6,287 bases of DNA from a virus (lineage: Monodnaviria > Loebvirae > Hofneiviricota > Faserviricetes > Tubulavirales > Inoviridae). The stretch lies in the IMG/VR virus record IMGVR_UViG_2695420792_000001, positions 1-6,287 of that record. One strand, 5' to 3'. Within the stretch, counting starts at the first letter, position 1, and the number at the start of each line of letters is the position of its first letter. Made by a program: the position numbers and the translations under genes. Positions 85 to 6,287 of this stretch are shown one piece after another. The notes below the pieces were generated by a model. It worked only from the letters and a program-made list of their open reading frames with translations. It was not told where the DNA came from and searched no databases.

Positions 85-118
85 GGTTTCGATATCGATT
101 AAAGGTTCGATTCTGAAA

Positions 119-1048
119 ATGTCGGGAAATCCATCCCGATGGAACAGACTGGACAATTTGTTTGGTCACACTTCTGTTGATGCCTGTGTGCAGGTATACA
201 ACCGGATCCTGAATGACCTTGGTCTGCCGGAATTCACAAAATGTACGAAATTGTGGCAGAGACAGGCAAGTGAAACTGAAAAGGCCGGAACGGTTACTGA
301 TGGCGCATGTATTCGTGAAATTCACATTACATCCAACCGAACAGTCGGAGCAGATAATGTAGATGACTATATATCGGGCCTTTCAACATTACGGTATCGC
401 AATAGTGAGCCGCGATTACACAGCAACGGTAAATCAGTTGACTGGCTATCCAAAAAAGGAAACGCCTTGCTCATTTATCCGACTGTATATAATAAAGCAC
501 ATGAAATTAAGCTTCACTCCCTTAATAAAATAAAGAATAAATTCGGGGATTCATCAGCTGAAGTTTCATACATCAAAAAGATTATTGATTTCTGTCAGGA
601 ACAGGGCGTAGTCAGATTTGAGCAAAAACTTAAATCCCGGTATCTGCAACGTAACCATCTTATTTACTGGGGGCTTTCCGACTATTCAATACTCAATAAT
701 TTACATGATGATTTTTTAGCTCTTGATAAAAAGCTTATGGTGACGTCGATGGATTTTGAAACGATTAGTGAACATTTAATCAGTGAAGGCATTGTTGACT
801 CAACTCGATCAGCGAATACCACTGCGATGTATGCTATCCAGTGGATGCACGGTCACTCATTTGATTTTTCTAAAACACAGGTGCAAACCCATCGTGCCAG
901 GCTTAGAAAAATAGGTATTGACATTGCTCAGCGATGTAATATTTCCAAATTTAGCCCCGTTATTGTTAAGAAAGTGAGAGAAGTATCAGTAAGTGAATGC
1001 TTTATTCCATCATGGTATGTGAAACCACGTTATTTGCATGTTGCATAA
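119..1048 (+). CDS. Replication initiation protein (gene II-like), 5'-truncated by the IS insertion; reading frame is open upstream to the IS junction at 85 and into the IS, so Met119 is not the native start
   Basis: Large ORF immediately upstream of the gene V homologue, as in the Ff gene order. The frame has no stop between position 29 and 1048, so it runs across the IS junction. It contains a Y-x3-Y-x-K motif (IYPTVYNK, nt 476-496) reminiscent of catalytic tyrosine motifs in rolling-circle initiators. No direct sequence alignment is possible from memory. Confidence 0.55.
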   Translation: MSGNPSRWNRLDNLFGHTSVDACVQVYNRILNDLGLPEFTKCTKLWQRQASETEKAGTVTDGACIREIHITSNRTVGADNVDDYISGLSTLRYRNSEPRLHSNGKSVDWLSKKGNALLIYPTVYNKAHEIKLHSLNKIKNKFGDSSAEVSYIKKIIDFCQEQGVVRFEQKLKSRYLQRNHLIYWGLSDYSILNNLHDDFLALDKKLMVTSMDFETISEHLISEGIVDSTRSANTTAMYAIQWMHGHSFDFSKTQVQTHRARLRKIGIDIAQRCNISKFSPVIVKKVREVSVSECFIPSWYVKPRYLHVA

Positions 1049-1060
1049 GAGGATATTTAA

Positions 1061-1348
1061 ATGATTAAGATTGAAATTAAACAGTCTCAGGCCATTGCCG
1101 ATACGCGTTCTGGCGTGTCGAAGTCGACCGGGCAGGCGTATACAATTAATGAGCAGTCTGCATATATTTTTCTTGGCCAGGATTATCCACAACTCTTCAA
1201 GTTGAATCTTGACGCGGGTCAGGCACCATACCCGGCGGGATTATATACATTACATCCATCCAGTATTTACGTCGGTGATTTCCAGAAATTACGGGTAGGA
1301 AGAATCGTTCTGATTCCATATCAGGAAAATAAAGAACAGACTAAATAA
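1061..1348 (+). CDS. ssDNA-binding protein, Ff gene V protein homologue
   Basis: The 95-aa product MIKIEIKQSQA..TRSGVS...YTINEQ..Y..LG..YP.L.K..LD.GQ.PY..GLYT.H.SS..VG.F aligns along most of its length with recalled M13 gVp (MIKVEIKPSQAQFTTRSGVSRQGKPYSLNEQ...GLYTVHLSSFKVGQF). RBS AAGAGGA sits about 8 nt upstream. Confidence 0.9.
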   Translation: MIKIEIKQSQAIADTRSGVSKSTGQAYTINEQSAYIFLGQDYPQLFKLNLDAGQAPYPAGLYTLHPSSIYVGDFQKLRVGRIVLIPYQENKEQTK

Positions 1349-1357
1349 GGTATCGCT

Positions 1358-1576
1358 ATGGCTTCTCAGAATATAATGACTGGTAAGATTTGTGATGGCA
1401 ATACTGAGCAGAACTGCCAGATAATAACATTAAATTCCTCTGAGTTGCCATATCAGCAGCTCCCTCCGGCAGAAGATATTGCACTGGTATGGGGAACTGC
1501 TTTTACCTCTGTAATCGTCCTTTATTTAGTATCACACTGTATTGGACTCGTTTTAAATATGATAAAGAGAGCCTAA
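1358..1576 (+). CDS. Small protein with C-terminal hydrophobic segment, in the position of Ff genes VII/IX (putative minor virion cap protein)
   Basis: 72-aa ORF between the gene V and gene VIII homologues. It has a hydrophilic N-terminal half and one C-terminal hydrophobic helix (ALVWGTAFTSVIVLYLVSHCIGLVL). An AGG motif lies upstream. The call rests on synteny only. Confidence 0.4.
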   Translation: MASQNIMTGKICDGNTEQNCQIITLNSSELPYQQLPPAEDIALVWGTAFTSVIVLYLVSHCIGLVLNMIKRA

Positions 1577-1578
1577 TT

Positions 1579-1800
1579 ATGAAAAAGACCATTTTGAAAT
1601 CAGCTGTTGTTATTGCTTCCGTAGTACCTTTTCTGGCTAATGCAGCAGAGTCTGCCGGAGTGGATTTTACTGCATTGACTAATGCAGTGTCATTCGACAG
1701 TGTAATTGTGGCAATTATGTCCGTAGCCGGCATTTTGGTTGGTCTTTATGCCTCCATTGCCGGGGCAAAAACAGTTCTGCGTATGATCCGTGGGGCCTGA
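1579..1800 (+). CDS. Major coat protein precursor (gene VIII-like), 73 aa
   Basis: MKKTILKSAVVIASVVPFLANA is a signal peptide with an A-x-A cleavage site. The mature part has an acidic N-terminus (AESAGVDF), a hydrophobic core and a basic C-terminus (KTVLRMIRGA). Length equals the 73-aa M13 pVIII precursor. I prefer the ATG at 1579 to the ORF-track start at 1489, which would overlap the preceding gene. Confidence 0.8.
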   Translation: MKKTILKSAVVIASVVPFLANAAESAGVDFTALTNAVSFDSVIVAIMSVAGILVGLYASIAGAKTVLRMIRGA

Positions 1801-1807
1801 TAATACG

Positions 1808-1825
1808 GGCAGGGGAAACCCTGCC
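1808..1825 (+). terminator. Stem-loop downstream of the major coat protein gene (GGCAGGG-GAAA-CCCTGCC), candidate intrinsic terminator
   Basis: A perfect 7-bp GC-rich stem with a GAAA tetraloop begins 8 nt after the gene VIII stop. The downstream T tract is weak (TTCAGGAGTTTCTG). Ff phages carry a terminator at this position between genes VIII and III. Confidence 0.45.
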
Positions 1826-1922
1826 TTCAGGAGTTTCTGTGATATTACATTTCTGGCTAATTACCTGTTTTCTCTGGGGTCTTCTTTGTGCCTGGGCAGT
1901 TATAAAAGGATTAGGAGGGTAA

Positions 1923-3188
1923 ATGAAAACTCTTTTAATTGCATTGTTGTTATCTATCATTAGCTTTTATTCATACAGTGCAGAGAACGCAGCTGTTATT
2001 AATCAGACCATTTCAGGAACCATTAAAAACAAAATTACACAGCGTGGTTTCTCAGCGAATGATCCTCGATACTACGGAACATTAAAAGGTATTTCAGGTT
2101 ATCTAAATTCTACCGCTTCAGGTTCGAAAGCTTATACCGTTGCAGGTGTCTCTGGTCGTTCGTGGTTATCAGTTGGACTCAGAGGGGCTTTGTTAAGCCG
2201 CGGTACGCTTATAGCTCTTGCCGCTTCCGGTGCGGTGGCATGGCTAATTGAGACTGAGGACTCCGTACAAATCAAAGTAAAAGAAATAACGGGAGAGCAG
2301 GGTGTTAAAGGGTTTTACTGGAATATTGGCGCAGAAAGCTATGTTACAGCAACTGAGGGAGCTCAGTCGATATGCCAGCATAATCCGGCGTTCTGTCAGA
2401 CATACATAGTTGAGCAATATAATGCAGACCCGACAAGGTCTGATTTAAGAACCATCAAATTTTATATTGATTCATCTAAAACACAGCTTTGGGCATCACG
2501 AACTGCAAACCTTGTTTCCTGCGGTACAAATAAGGTTATGCCTACATGTCAGCCTGATTATGTGCCGGGTAGTAATGAAGTAATTAAAACCGTTAGCGTA
2601 CAGGATGCTATTAATAGCATTTCAGATACGGAAATGCAGACAGATCTTTCGCCAGAAGTTATTTCTGATGTTGTAAATAATGCATGGCAAAAAGCAGCCT
2701 CCGAAGCAGGGTATTCTGGTTTTGCATACGACCACACCAGACCAGTGACAGCGCGTGATGTAACTGCTTCAACTGGTGCTGCAAAGCCCGCTGTATCTGA
2801 CTTTCTCAAACCGTCAGACAAACCCGATTTTACACTACCTGCTGACACAACAGGGACAACACCAACCAATCCATCGACAGGAGAACAGGTTAATCTTGGT
2901 GATGATCCTGGTATTGGGCCGCCTGAACTGGAAAATATACCTGCAGGTACTGAAATTTTATCTCCATTATTATCATTCAACCCCTTTGAAGATTCAGCCG
3001 ATGCACTTAATGCAGAAAGCGAAAGAATTAAATATGCGGAGTGTCCAAAACCTGTACTGGATGTTTTTAACGGACAATATAAGTTAGAAACACATTGTAC
3101 ATTATTAAATAATAACGCTGCGATGATTGGTGTTATTTTTCTGTTCATTTACTCAATAGCAGCGTTCAGAATTATCCTTTCTGCATAA
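1923..3188 (+). CDS. Adsorption/minor coat protein (gene III-like), 421 aa
   Basis: Strong RBS AGGAGG about 5 nt upstream. The signal peptide MKTLLIALLLSIISFYSYSAE resembles the recalled M13 pIII leader (MKKLLFAIPLVVPFYSHSAE). The C-terminus has two Cys (ECPKP...THCTLL) followed by a membrane anchor (AAMIGVIFLFIYSIAAFRIIL), as in M13 pIII. A Pro/Thr/Gly-rich linker lies in the middle. Size matches pIII (424 aa). Confidence 0.85.
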   Translation: MKTLLIALLLSIISFYSYSAENAAVINQTISGTIKNKITQRGFSANDPRYYGTLKGISGYLNSTASGSKAYTVAGVSGRSWLSVGLRGALLSRGTLIALAASGAVAWLIETEDSVQIKVKEITGEQGVKGFYWNIGAESYVTATEGAQSICQHNPAFCQTYIVEQYNADPTRSDLRTIKFYIDSSKTQLWASRTANLVSCGTNKVMPTCQPDYVPGSNEVIKTVSVQDAINSISDTEMQTDLSPEVISDVVNNAWQKAASEAGYSGFAYDHTRPVTARDVTASTGAAKPAVSDFLKPSDKPDFTLPADTTGTTPTNPSTGEQVNLGDDPGIGPPELENIPAGTEILSPLLSFNPFEDSADALNAESERIKYAECPKPVLDVFNGQYKLETHCTLLNNNAAMIGVIFLFIYSIAAFRIILSA

Positions 3189-3197
3189 AGGTGATTT

Positions 3198-3485
3198 ATG
3201 TTTGGCATCATGACCTCTGTTTTATATGGCGTTCTTGGGTTTTTATTGCGCTCAGTTATTGTGAAGTTTACGGTGTTTTTTGCATTGTATTTTATTGTGC
3301 AGGAATTCGTGCCGCTTATTCTCGATATGGTTAATCGCCAACTCCCACTTCTTGCGTTAATTTCAAGTATTCCAGATAGCCTGAAATATTTCTTCTCTGT
3401 TTTTAAAGTTATAGATGGGATTAACATAATACTTTCAGCTTTTGTGACTCGCTTTATTATTCGTCGAATTCCGGTAATAGGATAA
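3198..3485 (+). CDS. Minor coat protein (gene VI-like), hydrophobic 95 aa
   Basis: Highly hydrophobic small protein immediately after gene III and before gene I, matching Ff synteny. RBS AAGGTGA upstream. Confidence 0.7.
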   Translation: MFGIMTSVLYGVLGFLLRSVIVKFTVFFALYFIVQEFVPLILDMVNRQLPLLALISSIPDSLKYFFSVFKVIDGINIILSAFVTRFIIRRIPVIG

Positions 3486-3489
3486 TTTT

Positions 3490-4515
3490 ATGGCTGTATC
3501 ATTGTATATGGGTGTGATGGGGAGCGGTAAAACATACGAGGTTGTTTACAGTGTTATTATCCCTGCGGTTTCAGCAGGCCGCCGTGTAATCACCAATATC
3601 AAAGGGATAAATGAAGAGAAAATACATGAGTATTGTCGTTCTAAATTCAAGACTAAGCAGCCTGGTCGTGTTGTTTTCGCATCGACGGATGAAATATTAA
3701 AGGATGATTTCTTCCCTTTTTACTCTGATGATGAATCTTCAGAACAAAAAGCAGCATTTTGTGAATATGGTGATCTGATTTGTCTTGATGAATTATGGTC
3801 AATATGGCCATCGGACTCAAAACTATCTGAGGCACATAAAAGATTTATTTCAATGCACCGTCATATGACACATGCTGTTAGTGGGGTATCATGTGATTTG
3901 GTCATCATCAATCAGGGTGTAGATGGTGTACCCCGGTATCTTAAAGAGCGTATTGAATCGACATACCGGATGACCAAACTAAAATCTTTGGGGCTATCAA
4001 AGTCATATCGTGTCGATGTTTTTTCTGGTGCCAAAGTATTCAAAAATAATAAAGTCAGTACTCGTAACTATCAGTACAAAAAAGCCGTTTTTGAATTATA
4101 CAAATCTTATGAAACCACTAACGGAATGGAAGCGACAACAGACTCTAGACAAAACGTTTTTTCATCCGCCTTTCTTTGGGTGAAAATTGCATTTTTATTA
4201 TTTATTGTACTGGCTTCTATATATTCAATAAGAACGGTCTGGGTGGATATTAGAGGAGAGTCAGTACCAGAGCCGAAACATACCGAACCGGAGGTTGTAC
4301 TGCCTTCATCAGAAAAGATTGCGAAACCTGATGCCCCGTACTCAAAGCGCTGGCGTATTGCCGGGGAGTTAAAATCAGATTATGTCAGCAAGGTTGTTCT
4401 TACAGACAGCAATGGTCGGTTTAGAACGCTACCGGCAAATCAGTTCGACGGAGAAGGTTTTACTTTAAGTGGAATCATTGATGGTGAAATTGTCACCTAT
4501 TTTACTGGGGGTTAA
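3490..4515 (+). CDS. Phage assembly protein pI (Zot-family P-loop NTPase), 341 aa
   Basis: The N-terminus MAVSLYMGVMGSGKTYEVV carries a Walker A motif (GxxGSGKT) and resembles recalled M13 pI (MAVYFVTGKLGSGKT). A single transmembrane helix (FLWVKIAFLLFIVLASIYSI) lies about two thirds along the protein. It sits directly upstream of the secretin gene. Confidence 0.9.
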   Translation: MAVSLYMGVMGSGKTYEVVYSVIIPAVSAGRRVITNIKGINEEKIHEYCRSKFKTKQPGRVVFASTDEILKDDFFPFYSDDESSEQKAAFCEYGDLICLDELWSIWPSDSKLSEAHKRFISMHRHMTHAVSGVSCDLVIINQGVDGVPRYLKERIESTYRMTKLKSLGLSKSYRVDVFSGAKVFKNNKVSTRNYQYKKAVFELYKSYETTNGMEATTDSRQNVFSSAFLWVKIAFLLFIVLASIYSIRTVWVDIRGESVPEPKHTEPEVVLPSSEKIAKPDAPYSKRWRIAGELKSDYVSKVVLTDSNGRFRTLPANQFDGEGFTLSGIIDGEIVTYFTGG

Positions 4516-4516
4516 T

Positions 4517-5728
4517 ATGAAATTATTTTATATCATAATAATGGTATTTATGATTCCACCTGCATTATCAAAAGGCGTTATACTGAATCTCTCAGGATTA
4601 ACGCTTAATGATGCCATTACTTTGTTTTATACTGAAGTTATGAGAAAACCGTTCATGGTTTCTCCTGAACTTATCACGGACAAACGACAAGTTAATTTCA
4701 ATATTACGCCAGATATGGATGAGTATACGTTTATTATGCGTTATCTCCAGAATGCCGGAGTCTCTGTAGCCAGAAAAAATGGTGTGGATTACTTTTATCT
4801 CCAGGAGAAAAAAGTATACGAAGCCCCGAAATATTCTTTTGTTTACACACCACAGTACCGTTCTGTTGCTTATCTGGCTGATATTCTTCAGTCACAAGTG
4901 AGCGGGTCATTTTCAAATGGTGGGCAAATAGGGCATGGCGATGTTTCTCCTGCGATGATTAAAGACAATACCGCATCCGATTTTTTGAGCAGAAATGGGG
5001 ATGTACTTGTTTTTTACGGTACGAAAAAAGACATTCAGCGGGTCGAAGATTTGCTTCCTCTTATCGACCGGGCCGCCGAAGAAGTTATTGTCGCCGGGTA
5101 CGTGTTTGAGGTTCAGACGTCTGAGCGAAATGGTTCTGGCCTGGCACTGGCTGCCAAACTTATGTCGGGAAAATTCACAATAGAAACGGGTACTGCACAA
5201 GGACTCAGCAACTTTGTCCGTTTCAGTTCTGGATCGCTCGATGCACTTTATGAGTTGTTCAGAACAGACAGCCGTTTTCACGTCGTCAGTTCGCCACAAT
5301 TGCGGGTCAGAAATGGCTCTAAAGCATCATTTTCTGTGGGATCTGACGTGCCGGTACTCGGTCAGGTCAGCTATGTTGATGGTCGTCCGGTTCAGTCCAT
5401 TGATTATCGTTCAAGTGGCGTAATTTTTAACGTTCAGCCGCAAATCCGGGCTGCTACGATTGACCTTAATATTCATCAGCAACTGTCTAATTTTGCAAAA
5501 ACAGAGACTGGGGTGAATAACAGCCCGACGCTCATTAAACGGGAGGTGAACACCGATGTTTCGCTCAAGGATGGCGACATAATTTTACTTGGTGGTCTGG
5601 CTGAGAATAAAGACAGTAATGCAGATACGGGCCTGTCATTTTTGCCGTCATGGTTCGGAACAACGGCAACTGAAAAAGCAAAAACAGACATCATTATTGT
5701 ACTTCAGGCCAGAAAAATCAGGCGGTGA
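4517..5728 (+). CDS. Secretin, phage pIV-like outer-membrane export channel, about 403 aa
   Basis: Signal peptide MKLFYIIIMVFMIPPALS. The C-terminal secretin-type region (VSLKDGDIILLGGLAENKDSNADTGLSFLPSWFG) resembles the recalled pIV C-terminus (…MDGQPLLLGGL…GVPFLSKIP…). I chose the start at 4517 because it follows the gene I stop (4513-4515) and a GGGGG RBS; the ORF-track start at 4469 would lie inside gene I. Confidence 0.88.
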   Translation: MKLFYIIIMVFMIPPALSKGVILNLSGLTLNDAITLFYTEVMRKPFMVSPELITDKRQVNFNITPDMDEYTFIMRYLQNAGVSVARKNGVDYFYLQEKKVYEAPKYSFVYTPQYRSVAYLADILQSQVSGSFSNGGQIGHGDVSPAMIKDNTASDFLSRNGDVLVFYGTKKDIQRVEDLLPLIDRAAEEVIVAGYVFEVQTSERNGSGLALAAKLMSGKFTIETGTAQGLSNFVRFSSGSLDALYELFRTDSRFHVVSSPQLRVRNGSKASFSVGSDVPVLGQVSYVDGRPVQSIDYRSSGVIFNVQPQIRAATIDLNIHQQLSNFAKTETGVNNSPTLIKREVNTDVSLKDGDIILLGGLAENKDSNADTGLSFLPSWFGTTATEKAKTDIIIVLQARKIRR

Positions 5729-5959
5729 GAGCAGGGCGGCCAGCCCCGCAGCTCCGTGAGGAGCTGGCCGTACTGAGACACCGACTGTTGATTGATTGTG
5801 TAAATCATGAACGGCGTGATTTGCGCATGCGCAAATTTCTCGTCAATTCTTATGGGGAATCTATGGCTACAAAGTTGAAGTTTATCCGACTGAAAATTGA
5901 AGATGAGTTAATCCAGCCGGTTAATAATCTGGCAGGCATTCGCGATGAGTTAAAGGCCG
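5729..5959 (+). promoter_or_regulatory. Remnant of the phage intergenic region, truncated at 5959/5960 by the IS insertion; contains a GC-rich dyad and a perfect 18-bp palindrome
   Basis: Located after the gene IV stop, where Ff phages carry a terminator, the packaging signal and the origins. Hairpin CAGCTCC-GTGA-GGAGCTG at 5749-5766, or the alternative CGGCCAGC/GCTGGCCG pairing at 5737-5770. Perfect palindrome ATTTGCGCATGCGCAAAT at 5819-5836. Confidence 0.5.
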
Positions 5960-6287
5960 TGAACCGCCCCGGGAATCCTGGAGACTAAACTTCCTGAGAA
6001 AGAGGTAAACAGGATGACTAAAAATACTCGTTTTTCCCCCGAAGTCCGTCAACGGGCAGTCCGTATGGTTCTGGAAAGTCAGGATGAATATGACTCACAG
6101 TGGGCGGCAATTTGTTCCATTGCCCCAAAGATTGGCTGTACGCCGGAGACTCTGCGTGTCTGGGTTCGCCAGCATGAGCGGGATACCGGGGCGGTGATGG
6201 TGGGCTCACCAGCGCTGAACGTCAGCGTCTGAAAGAGCTGGAACGTGAAAATCGTGAACTGCGCCGCAGTAACGATATCCTTCGCCA
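5960..6287 (+). mobile_element. Partial IS3-family insertion sequence (IS629/IS1203-like), orfA-proximal end; element continues beyond the window
   Basis: Terminal repeat starts TGAACCGCCCCGGG at 5960. OrfA begins at 6014 with [23 protein letters not shown]…[18 protein letters not shown], which matches my recollection of IS629 OrfA. Identical over 84 bp to the inverted copy at 1-84. Confidence 0.9.
6014..6232 (+). CDS. IS3-family transposase OrfA (helix-turn-helix N-terminal part); frame is interrupted before the leucine-zipper segment, which continues in the -1 frame from 6178 to the window end
   Basis: The ORF encodes the HTH-like N-terminus and stops at 6230-6232. The leucine-zipper-like sequence [19 protein letters not shown] is read in the -1 frame from 6229 onward. 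The two frames overlap at 6178-6232, around a G4 run at 6188-6191. Confidence 0.7.

Follow-up and report, generated by a model that had tools for sequence, protein, structure and literature searches.

In the filamentous phage f1, the leading virion tip contains pVII and pIX in about five copies, with C-termini that contact the packaging-signal hairpin, and both are needed for the initiation of assembly (PMC10175506). As seen by electron cryomicroscopy, a pVII bundle is surrounded in layer 1 of the tip by five pIX and five pVIII helices in alternation, and the basic C-termini of pVIII, pVII and pIX are directed towards the DNA with the N-termini outward (PMC10175506). According to work on Xanthomonas phages, many integrative filamentous phages lack recognisable homologues of gIX and often of gVII, and both the way in which their assembly starts and the nature of the cap at their leading end are unclear (bioRxiv 10.1101/2023.12.30.573655, 10.1101/2024.03.19.585677). 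Here, we analysed a stretch of Inoviridae DNA of 6,287 nucleotides (nt; IMG/VR record IMGVR_UViG_2695420792_000001, hereafter the window), in which a single open reading frame (ORF) of 72 amino acids (aa), ORF72, separates a gene V homologue from the major coat gene gVIII. This is the position at which M13 indeed carries gVII (33 aa) and gIX (32 aa).

Small genes of the closest described systems

ORF72 shares several features with pVII and pIX of Ff and IKe: the slot between gV and gVIII within one transcription unit, the lack of a signal peptide, a single helix of about 33 residues, an acidic N-terminus and a basic C-terminus. The Ff proteins, however, are 32–33 residues long and consist of the helix alone, whereas ORF72 is twice as long with an extra module of about 37 residues that includes a cysteine pair. 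Moreover, Ff has two genes at this slot and the ORF72 lineage only one.

Two other systems are closer in layout. In the Vibrio phage VGJphi, the gene order is the same as the one described below: orf112 (single-stranded DNA (ssDNA)-binding), orf81, orf44 (coat), orf29, orf493 (gIII), orf80 (gVI) and orf384 (gI). Both orf81 and orf29 (PHROGs 2924 and 25361) are annotated as ‘putative minor capsid protein’ and in orf81, as in ORF72, two Cys precede the only hydrophobic helix, which is C-terminal and ends in a basic tail. VGJphi differs in having no secretin gene and a different replication module. In the Pf phages of Pseudomonas, the protein encoded directly upstream of the coat gene (Pf1 orf83, Pf4 PA0722) is of about 83 aa, with two conserved Cys and one C-terminal helix, and the Pf1 orf83 tail LLRKAK mimics the Pf1 coat tail MLRKA. 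The Pf phages also have a hydrophobic partner gene of about 30 aa (orf30, PA0721), which precedes the long gene; in the window the small gene that we call ORF27 is found after gVIII instead. PA0721 and PA0722 have been listed by analogy as the gVII and gIX minor capsid proteins (PMC12328805; PMC13502202) and PA0722 co-varies with structural genes between two Pf lineages (PMC7549136). PA0721, the 30-aa PfsE, confers superinfection exclusion and binds PilC (PMC8764522).

ORF72 thus has in common with orf81 and orf83 a length of 70–110 aa, the N-terminal Cys pair, the C-terminal helix, the basic tail and a gene located directly upstream of gVIII. It is a further long ‘gIX-position’ protein of the non-Ff inoviruses, a kind already known but experimentally uncharacterised. 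A layout with one gene of about 80 aa and one of about 30 aa is ordinary for non-Ff filamentous phages and has already been recorded for VGJphi and for Pf1 and Pf4; this architecture will not in itself surprise a specialist. What is new here is the family-wide anatomy (charge dipole and cysteine pair), the in-register resemblance to the coat protein and an unannotated 27-aa gene that completes the pair.

ORF72 is a single conserved gene

ORF72 is intact on the + strand from the ATG at 1358 to the TAA at 1574–1576, with 9 nt between the gene V stop and its start and 2 nt between its stop and the major coat gene. A sequence-only reading of the window had pointed out a single ORF where Ff phages have two tiny genes, with a hydrophilic N-terminal half followed by one C-terminal hydrophobic helix. 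The slot (1358–1576, between the gV homologue and gVIII) was confirmed, and so was this anatomy, as judged by charge, hydrophobicity window and AlphaFold2 (AF2) model (see below). ORF72 is a real, conserved single gene and not a chance ORF. The identical ORF is found in independent E. coli genomes and, in a Kluyvera georgiana relative with 72% amino-acid identity, the start, length and stop are all kept. Nucleotide differences between the two genes are distributed 13/7/30 over codon positions 1/2/3.

These observations argue against a sequencing error merging two ORFs, one of the explanations that had been considered, since the ORF is identical in independent genomes and intact at equal length in the Kluyvera relative. 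A fusion of pVII with pIX is likewise unsupported: just one hydrophobic helix is present, the N-terminal half, hydrophilic and variable, forms a module that carries a Cys pair, and no similarity to pVII or pIX was detected. As for an unrecognised second start, we inspected all in-frame ATG, GTG and TTG codons, each with the 20 nt before it, in eight loci (the window and seven relatives) and found no internal start conserved with a Shine–Dalgarno (SD) sequence. The internal candidates in ORF72 are ATG-7, TTG-30 and ATG-68, all three devoid of an SD. ATG-7 is not conserved (ATT in the Kluyvera relative), and TTG-30, common to the window and two relatives, is the Leu codon of a conserved ELPYQQ motif. 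An N-terminal extension of gVIII from an ATG at 1489 (103-aa ORF), which is open in the Kluyvera relative too, was treated as a chance open frame: changes in the ORF72 frame are synonymous, and a count by eye puts about 10 differences within the 30 residues of the extension.

ORF72 belongs to PHROG 3679, a group of inovirus proteins without assigned function: its residues 3–72 match positions 4–88 of the 88-position profile (E 6.5e-9, 36.9 bits). The equivalent gene of Dulem virus 52, with the same position and architecture, also matches the whole profile (E 1e-21). Neither NCBIfam nor Pfam holds a family for ORF72 or for ORF27. An exhaustive HMMER profile scan of 1.84 billion protein representatives yielded 24 matches at E <= 1e-3, 23 of which are family-like proteins of 66–108 aa; the other (P0024, a 432-aa repeat protein) was spurious and was excluded. 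With ORF72 as the query, a word-indexed protein search returned 2 clusters only and tblastn against 50,697 GenBank phage records gave no match, and relatives were reached only through searches with pVI, pVIII and pV. Altogether more than 25 related loci were examined (22 viral, 2 genome and 3 metagenome contigs, with Dulem virus 52, Inovirus D_HF32_91 and Pseudomonas phage PMBT54 from GenBank). The filamentous-phage family that carries ORF72 is widespread.

Family members range from 66 to 111 aa, with a variable N-terminal part and the conserved core DY..A..WG(V/L)AFTSV..LYL.SHGIGL.L..I(K/R)(R/N)(A/G). In the window and at all of these loci the gene is flanked by the ssDNA-binding gene and the major coat gene, and the order at all loci is ssDNA-binding gene, ORF72 family, gVIII, hairpin, ORF27-type small ORF, gIII, gVI, gI and gIV.

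A charge-polarised protein with a coat-like C-terminus

The N-terminal part of ORF72 has a net charge of -4 and carries neither a hydrophobic segment at the N-terminus nor a signal peptide. Its best 19-residue hydrophobic window covers residues 48–66 and is followed by the tail NMIKRA (+2). This anatomy holds across the family. Each of the 27 aligned members has one hydrophobic segment, which is C-terminal, and a tail charged +1 to +3; the N-terminal part is net negative (-1 to -6) in 26 of them and 0 in one, and exactly two Cys precede the helix in 26 of the 27. In the AF2 model, made with a 24-sequence alignment, a single helix spans residues 38–71 with a predicted local distance difference test score (pLDDT) of 88–95. 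The model also shows two strands (residues 6–12 and 20–26; low to moderate pLDDT of about 61–66) that place Cys12 and Cys20 at the base of the loop. A cysteine pair flanking the predicted hairpin loop is consistent with a periplasmic, exposed N-terminus, and the modelled hairpin may also be exposed on the virion. A profile search of PDB sequences returned only spurious WD40-repeat matches for ORF72 and nothing for the Pf orf83 family, thus no solved structure, tip included, holds either long-protein family.

We further compared ORF72 with the major coat protein. When anchored at the C-terminus, the last 37 residues of ORF72-family proteins align without gaps to the same number of final residues in the cognate pVIII, for example IDYSVAAQYWGVAFTSV..ILKLVRNA with IDFGSVLTGIMAVAAS..ILRMVKSA. 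In the window and six other enterobacterial-type loci, this end-anchored similarity reached z 2.6–4.8 over composition-preserving shuffles, with offset 0 the only positive offset in these seven loci. With Pf1 and PMBT54 the best offset was +1, matching tails that are one residue longer. Alignment of the ORF72 family to pVIII by hhalign was also in register (30 columns, E 5e-4, probability 31%). This similarity falls below the level that would prove common descent, and ORF72 has no match to phrog_2186 or PF05356 in PHROG and Pfam searches. The two proteins also differ in several respects. pVIII has a cleavable signal peptide and a mature helix of about 50 residues, neither of which applies to ORF72, and the N-terminal part of ORF72 is different and its SD weak. 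The likely gVIII SD (AAGAGAG) falls within the final codons of ORF72.

ORF72 is linked to the structural module

ORF72 occupies the operon slot of Ff gVII and gIX, with tight spacing and upstream of the post-gVIII hairpin. In many of the related loci, gII and gV are replaced by unrelated replication and ssDNA-binding genes while ORF72, gVIII, ORF27, gVI and gI persist, which indicates that ORF72 travels with the structural and assembly block rather than with the replication block. Taken together, these results show that ORF72 is a real and conserved single-pass protein, charge-polarised, linked to the structural module and pVIII-like at its C-terminus.

Mosaicism separates window positions 119–1348 from 1358–5728 and is seen with loci L015, L028, L030, L031, L034 and L006. 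The retained block comprises ORF72-gVIII-ORF27-gIII-gVI-gI-gIV, and the recombination boundary lies between the ssDNA-binding gene and ORF72.

ORF27, a second small gene after gVIII

ORF27 (MILHFWLITCFLWGLLCAWAVIKGLGG; core FLWGLLCAWAVIKGL) follows the gVIII hairpin and precedes gIII. Its start codon is a GTG, 5 nt downstream of an AGGAG, and its TAA stop is directly followed by the gIII ATG; in the Kluyvera relative the start is ATG, not GTG. The near-invariant core F(L/I/F/M)WGLLCAWAVI.GL was found in all enterobacterial-type loci, with close variants in D_HF32_91 and Dulem virus 52, while PMBT54 has only a weakly similar 24-aa ORF at this position. Peptides of the ORF27 type are 24–34 aa long. 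They occur in every related locus examined save a decaying prophage copy (L032), where the gene is frameshifted.

Among 17 distinct nucleotide versions of the core, the ORF27 frame shows 946 synonymous and 373 non-synonymous codon differences, compared to 125/1169 and 95/1206 (synonymous/non-synonymous) in the other two frames. Since codon differences are mostly synonymous in this frame, unlike in the others, purifying selection on the peptide itself is strong. Identity to the window copy across loci is 55–94% for ORF27, 27–72% for ORF72 and 32–84% for pVIII: ORF27 is the most conserved protein of the structural module.

ORF27 is the second small gene of the lineage, the one that was apparently missing. 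Accordingly, the view that a single gene replaces the two tiny Ff genes stands for the gV–gVIII slot, but not for the whole module, because a second tiny hydrophobic gene exists downstream of gVIII (1839–1922). ORF27 is the probable small partner of ORF72, although its coupling to gIII means that a role at the trailing end is possible instead.

A hidden Markov model of 15 ORF27 sequences scored Pf1 orf30 at E 14 among 379 ORFs, which is not significant. Homology of ORF27 to PfsE/orf30, orf29, pVII or pIX was considered and set aside for want of a significant match in this type of search, and similarity to VGJphi orf29 in particular is not significant. PfsE, a protein of about 30 aa that binds PilC, has a conserved aromatic motif, YAWGW (PMC8764522). 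At the place of this motif in PfsE (Pf4 PA0721), ORF27 carries CAWAV; YAWGW is not present as such.

The tandem prophage copy in which ORF27 is frameshifted (L032, 3210–3354 and 3251–5135) also has a split gIII, and this joint decay shows that the small genes are lost together with gIII function.

The hairpin that precedes ORF27 (1796–1831) has a minimum free energy of -22.6 kcal/mol (z -4.2). It is strong and stands at the position of a terminator but without a canonical T-run, and a simple scan called no canonical terminator after gVIII. Several relatives have a pyrimidine- or T-rich run at the position of the hairpin, just upstream of the ORF27 start. The extended outer stem of the hairpin pairs with part of the AGGAG that serves ORF27. 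This pairing may make the translation of ORF27 and gIII depend on opening of the hairpin.

Possible functions of ORF72

Since its charge polarity matches that of pVIII, pVII and pIX and its C-terminus resembles that of the cognate pVIII, ORF72 would be placed in the membrane and then in the virion. It is probably a membrane-anchored minor coat protein and, on our analysis, the balance tips slightly towards a pIX-like protein of the leading tip with a role in the initiation of assembly. Of the suggestions made in the sequence-only reading, that of an alternative tip protein thus remains the best functional guess, applied to one gene, while fusion, nested start and error are all unsupported.

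We infer the topology of ORF72, its disulfide, its entry into the virion, the end that it occupies and its role in initiation along the following lines. The protein would insert into the inner membrane without a signal peptide, leaving the acidic N-terminal 40 or so residues in the periplasm and the basic C-terminus (KR) in the cytoplasm. The N-terminal hairpin could be stapled by a Cys12–Cys20 disulfide. The 34-residue C-terminal helix would mimic that of pVIII and so take up a pVIII-like place in the virion lattice, at the leading end, which is extruded first and where pIX is found in f1. In this position, the basic tail would face the DNA and help to start assembly, and the N-terminal module would be displayed on the tip.

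Several points weigh against this proposal. No sequence similarity of ORF72 to Ff pVII or pIX is detectable: ORF72 matches neither phrog_7781 (pVII) nor phrog_10143 (pIX), which M13 pVII and pIX match at E 5e-20 and 3e-26, respectively, and hhalign of the family against M13 pIX and pVII gave probabilities of 1.0% and 0.5%. The resemblance to pVIII is modest, as judged by the hhalign probability given above, and generic features of a transmembrane helix with a basic end could partly explain it. Homology to VGJphi orf81 is weak (hhalign probability 6%; cross-match of ORF72 to phrog_2924 at E 0.0055, next to one to phrog_969 at E 0.0085) and homology to Pf orf83 only suggestive (34 C-terminal columns aligned in register; probability 56%, E 1.2e-4). 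In VGJphi and Pf4 themselves, position and size are the only basis for the names ‘minor capsid’ and ‘gIX’. The N-terminal hairpin is a low-confidence part of the AF2 model (pLDDT ~61–66), and a Foldseek search of the PDB found no match for ORF72 (E >= 2.8, values that are meaningless for a hairpin plus one helix). Virion incorporation is, for every member of the family, something that we infer. Finally, the copy in the window lies within a truncated prophage flanked by insertion sequences (IS), and ORF72 may thus not be expressed here.

A more specific form of the leading-tip proposal can be put forward tentatively, with more doubt than confidence. The ORF72 family would be a coat-derived cap, in which a pVIII-like helix carries a disulfide-stapled beta-hairpin knob and which, with the highly conserved ORF27, would form the leading tip of the large inovirus clade with gVI (DUF2523), gI (Zot) and gIV. 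If true, the components said to be ‘missing’ from the tips of many integrative filamentous phages would be accounted for, and the leading end would offer a natural display site. In any case, one enterobacterial lineage gains a candidate pair, namely a conserved protein of 66–111 aa with a coat-like helix and a peptide of 24–34 aa.

Alternatively, ORF72 could be a membrane protein that does not enter the virion, either a cofactor of assembly at the pI/pIV export site or a host-directed factor, for example for superinfection exclusion as with PfsE. Small inovirus membrane proteins encoded nearby can act on the host, as shown by the binding of Pf4 PA0721/PfsE to PilC (PMC8764522), and the assembly of integrative filamentous phages makes use of factors that stay outside the virion, such as PSB15 (bioRxiv 10.1101/2024.03.19.585677); a variable N-terminal module would also suit host interaction. 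We nevertheless regard this role as unlikely. ORF72 is linked to the structural module and not to accessory regions, it sits in the high-expression gV–gVIII unit, and neither the coat-like charge dipole nor the in-register resemblance to pVIII would be expected for a pure host-interaction factor.

It is improbable that ORF72 is a divergent pVIII paralogue serving as a variant coat subunit, either scattered along the filament or in few copies, instead of as a dedicated tip cap. Such a role would account for the alignment of its C-terminal 37 residues with the cognate pVIII (z 2.6–4.8; hhalign E 5e-4) and for a gene placed immediately upstream of gVIII in one transcription unit. However, ORF72 lacks a signal peptide, and an SD as weak as TAAGG suggests an output much below that of pVIII. 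In addition, a bulky N-terminal module of 40 residues per subunit would be hard to fit in the pVIII lattice, and in f1 the non-pVIII helix found at a pVIII-like lattice position is at the tip (PMC10175506).

The pVII–pIX fusion, hidden internal start or sequencing error of the sequence-only reading are hardly credible: position and summed length (72 aa against 33 + 32 aa) and the TTG at codon 30 in the window and two relatives speak for them, but there is one hydrophobic segment instead of two, pVII and pIX similarity is absent, ATG-7 is lost in a relative with no internal start conserved with an SD, the ORF is identical in independent genomes, and single ORFs of 66–111 aa are the rule in the family.

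Gene content of the window and prophage context

The features of the window are collected in Table 1. The gene V homologue is 53% identical to Ff pV and 52% identical to IKe pV. For the gIII-like protein, PHROGs 7187 and 3942 cover only the C-terminal 120–200 residues or so and no match to Pfam or NCBIfam was found. Its N-terminal, receptor-binding part has no relationship to the known adsorption domains, and only about half of the protein is common to the relatives.

Table 1. Positions of the genes and other features in the window
Feature	Position	Strand	Evidence and remarks
gII, truncated	119–1048		
Gene V homologue, ssDNA-binding, 95 aa	1061–1348	+	Pfam PF02303 (Phage_DNA_bind) E 1.9e-24; phrog_1199 E 5e-29
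ORF72, 72 aa, PHROG 3679	1358–1576	+	phrog_3679 E 6.5e-9, full length; weak SD TAAGG 7 nt upstream
ORF72 predicted beta-hairpin (residues 6–12, 20–26)	1373–1435	+	Cys12 (1391–1393) and Cys20 (1415–1417) at loop base
ORF72 C-terminal helix, residues 38–71 (transmembrane segment and basic tail)	1469–1570	+	AF2
Gene VIII, major coat precursor, 73 aa, signal peptide	1579–1800	+	phrog_2186 E 1e-18; weak Pfam Phage_Coat_B match
RNA hairpin after gVIII	1796–1831	+	Core stem 1807–1814/1819–1826, loop GAAA
ORF27, 27-aa hydrophobic protein	1839–1922	+	GTG start, AGGAG at 1829–1833; unannotated
Gene III-like adsorption/terminating-tip protein, 421 aa, signal peptide	1923–3188	+	C-terminal part: phrog_7187 (E 8e-47), phrog_3942; position as in other inoviruses
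Gene VI-like minor coat protein, DUF2523, 95 aa	3198–3485	+	PF10734 E 1.5e-13; phrog_974 ‘minor head protein’ E 4e-19
Gene I, Zot-type assembly ATPase, 341 aa	3490–4515	+	RefSeq annotation of identical gene; Pfam Zot on relative
Gene IV secretin, 403 aa	4517–5728	+	RefSeq ‘GspD’ annotation of identical gene; Pfam Secretin on relative

Inoviridae prophage DNA makes up 5.9 kb of the window (85–5959). It is bracketed by IS629/IS3-type ends that form a perfect 84-nt inverted repeat (1–84 and 5960–6043), and the prophage is interrupted inside gII, of which about 62 N-terminal codons are gone, and in the ORF after gIV. Either the copy is a defective remnant with IS boundaries, or the assembly was joined at a repeat.

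The same phage DNA is present at 99.5–99.8% identity in 9 of 5,426 complete E. coli genomes, as an element of about 9 kb that adjoins hipBA, in some of them in tandem. Complete copies of the prophage are carried by E. coli PCP06021 (NZ_CM129877) and by strain 6EVA (NZ_CP138428). In one of these genomes (L001, 1–13878) the complete phage forms a tandem array beside hipBA, near the chromosome terminus, for which we suspect a dif-type integration site. The unit of about 9 kb there also carries a helix-turn-helix repressor-like gene, a HigA-like antitoxin gene and a 1077-nt minus-strand ORF. Because the element was found in just 9 of the 5,426 genomes, its identity with CUS-1 or YpfPhi is unlikely; a review of YpfPhi contains nothing on small genes.

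Annotation of ORF72 and ORF27 in public records

ORF72 is annotated as WP_032253735.1 in NZ_CM129877 (L001, 5277–5495), and the identical sequence was left unannotated in the RefSeq E. coli genome NZ_CP047658 (L002, 4283–4501). ORF27 is annotated in none of the RefSeq E. coli and GenBank phage records of the lineage that were inspected. A modest practical outcome is therefore that ORF27, and ORF72 in some records, should be annotated. In PMBT54, the ORF72-type protein encoded upstream of gVIII (ORF6; L008, 2132–2356) has been named ‘ssDNA binding protein’, and relatives of VGJphi orf81 (P0106–P0108) bear the name ‘single-stranded DNA-binding protein’ at NCBI. Both names are probably wrong and carried over from the neighbouring gene.

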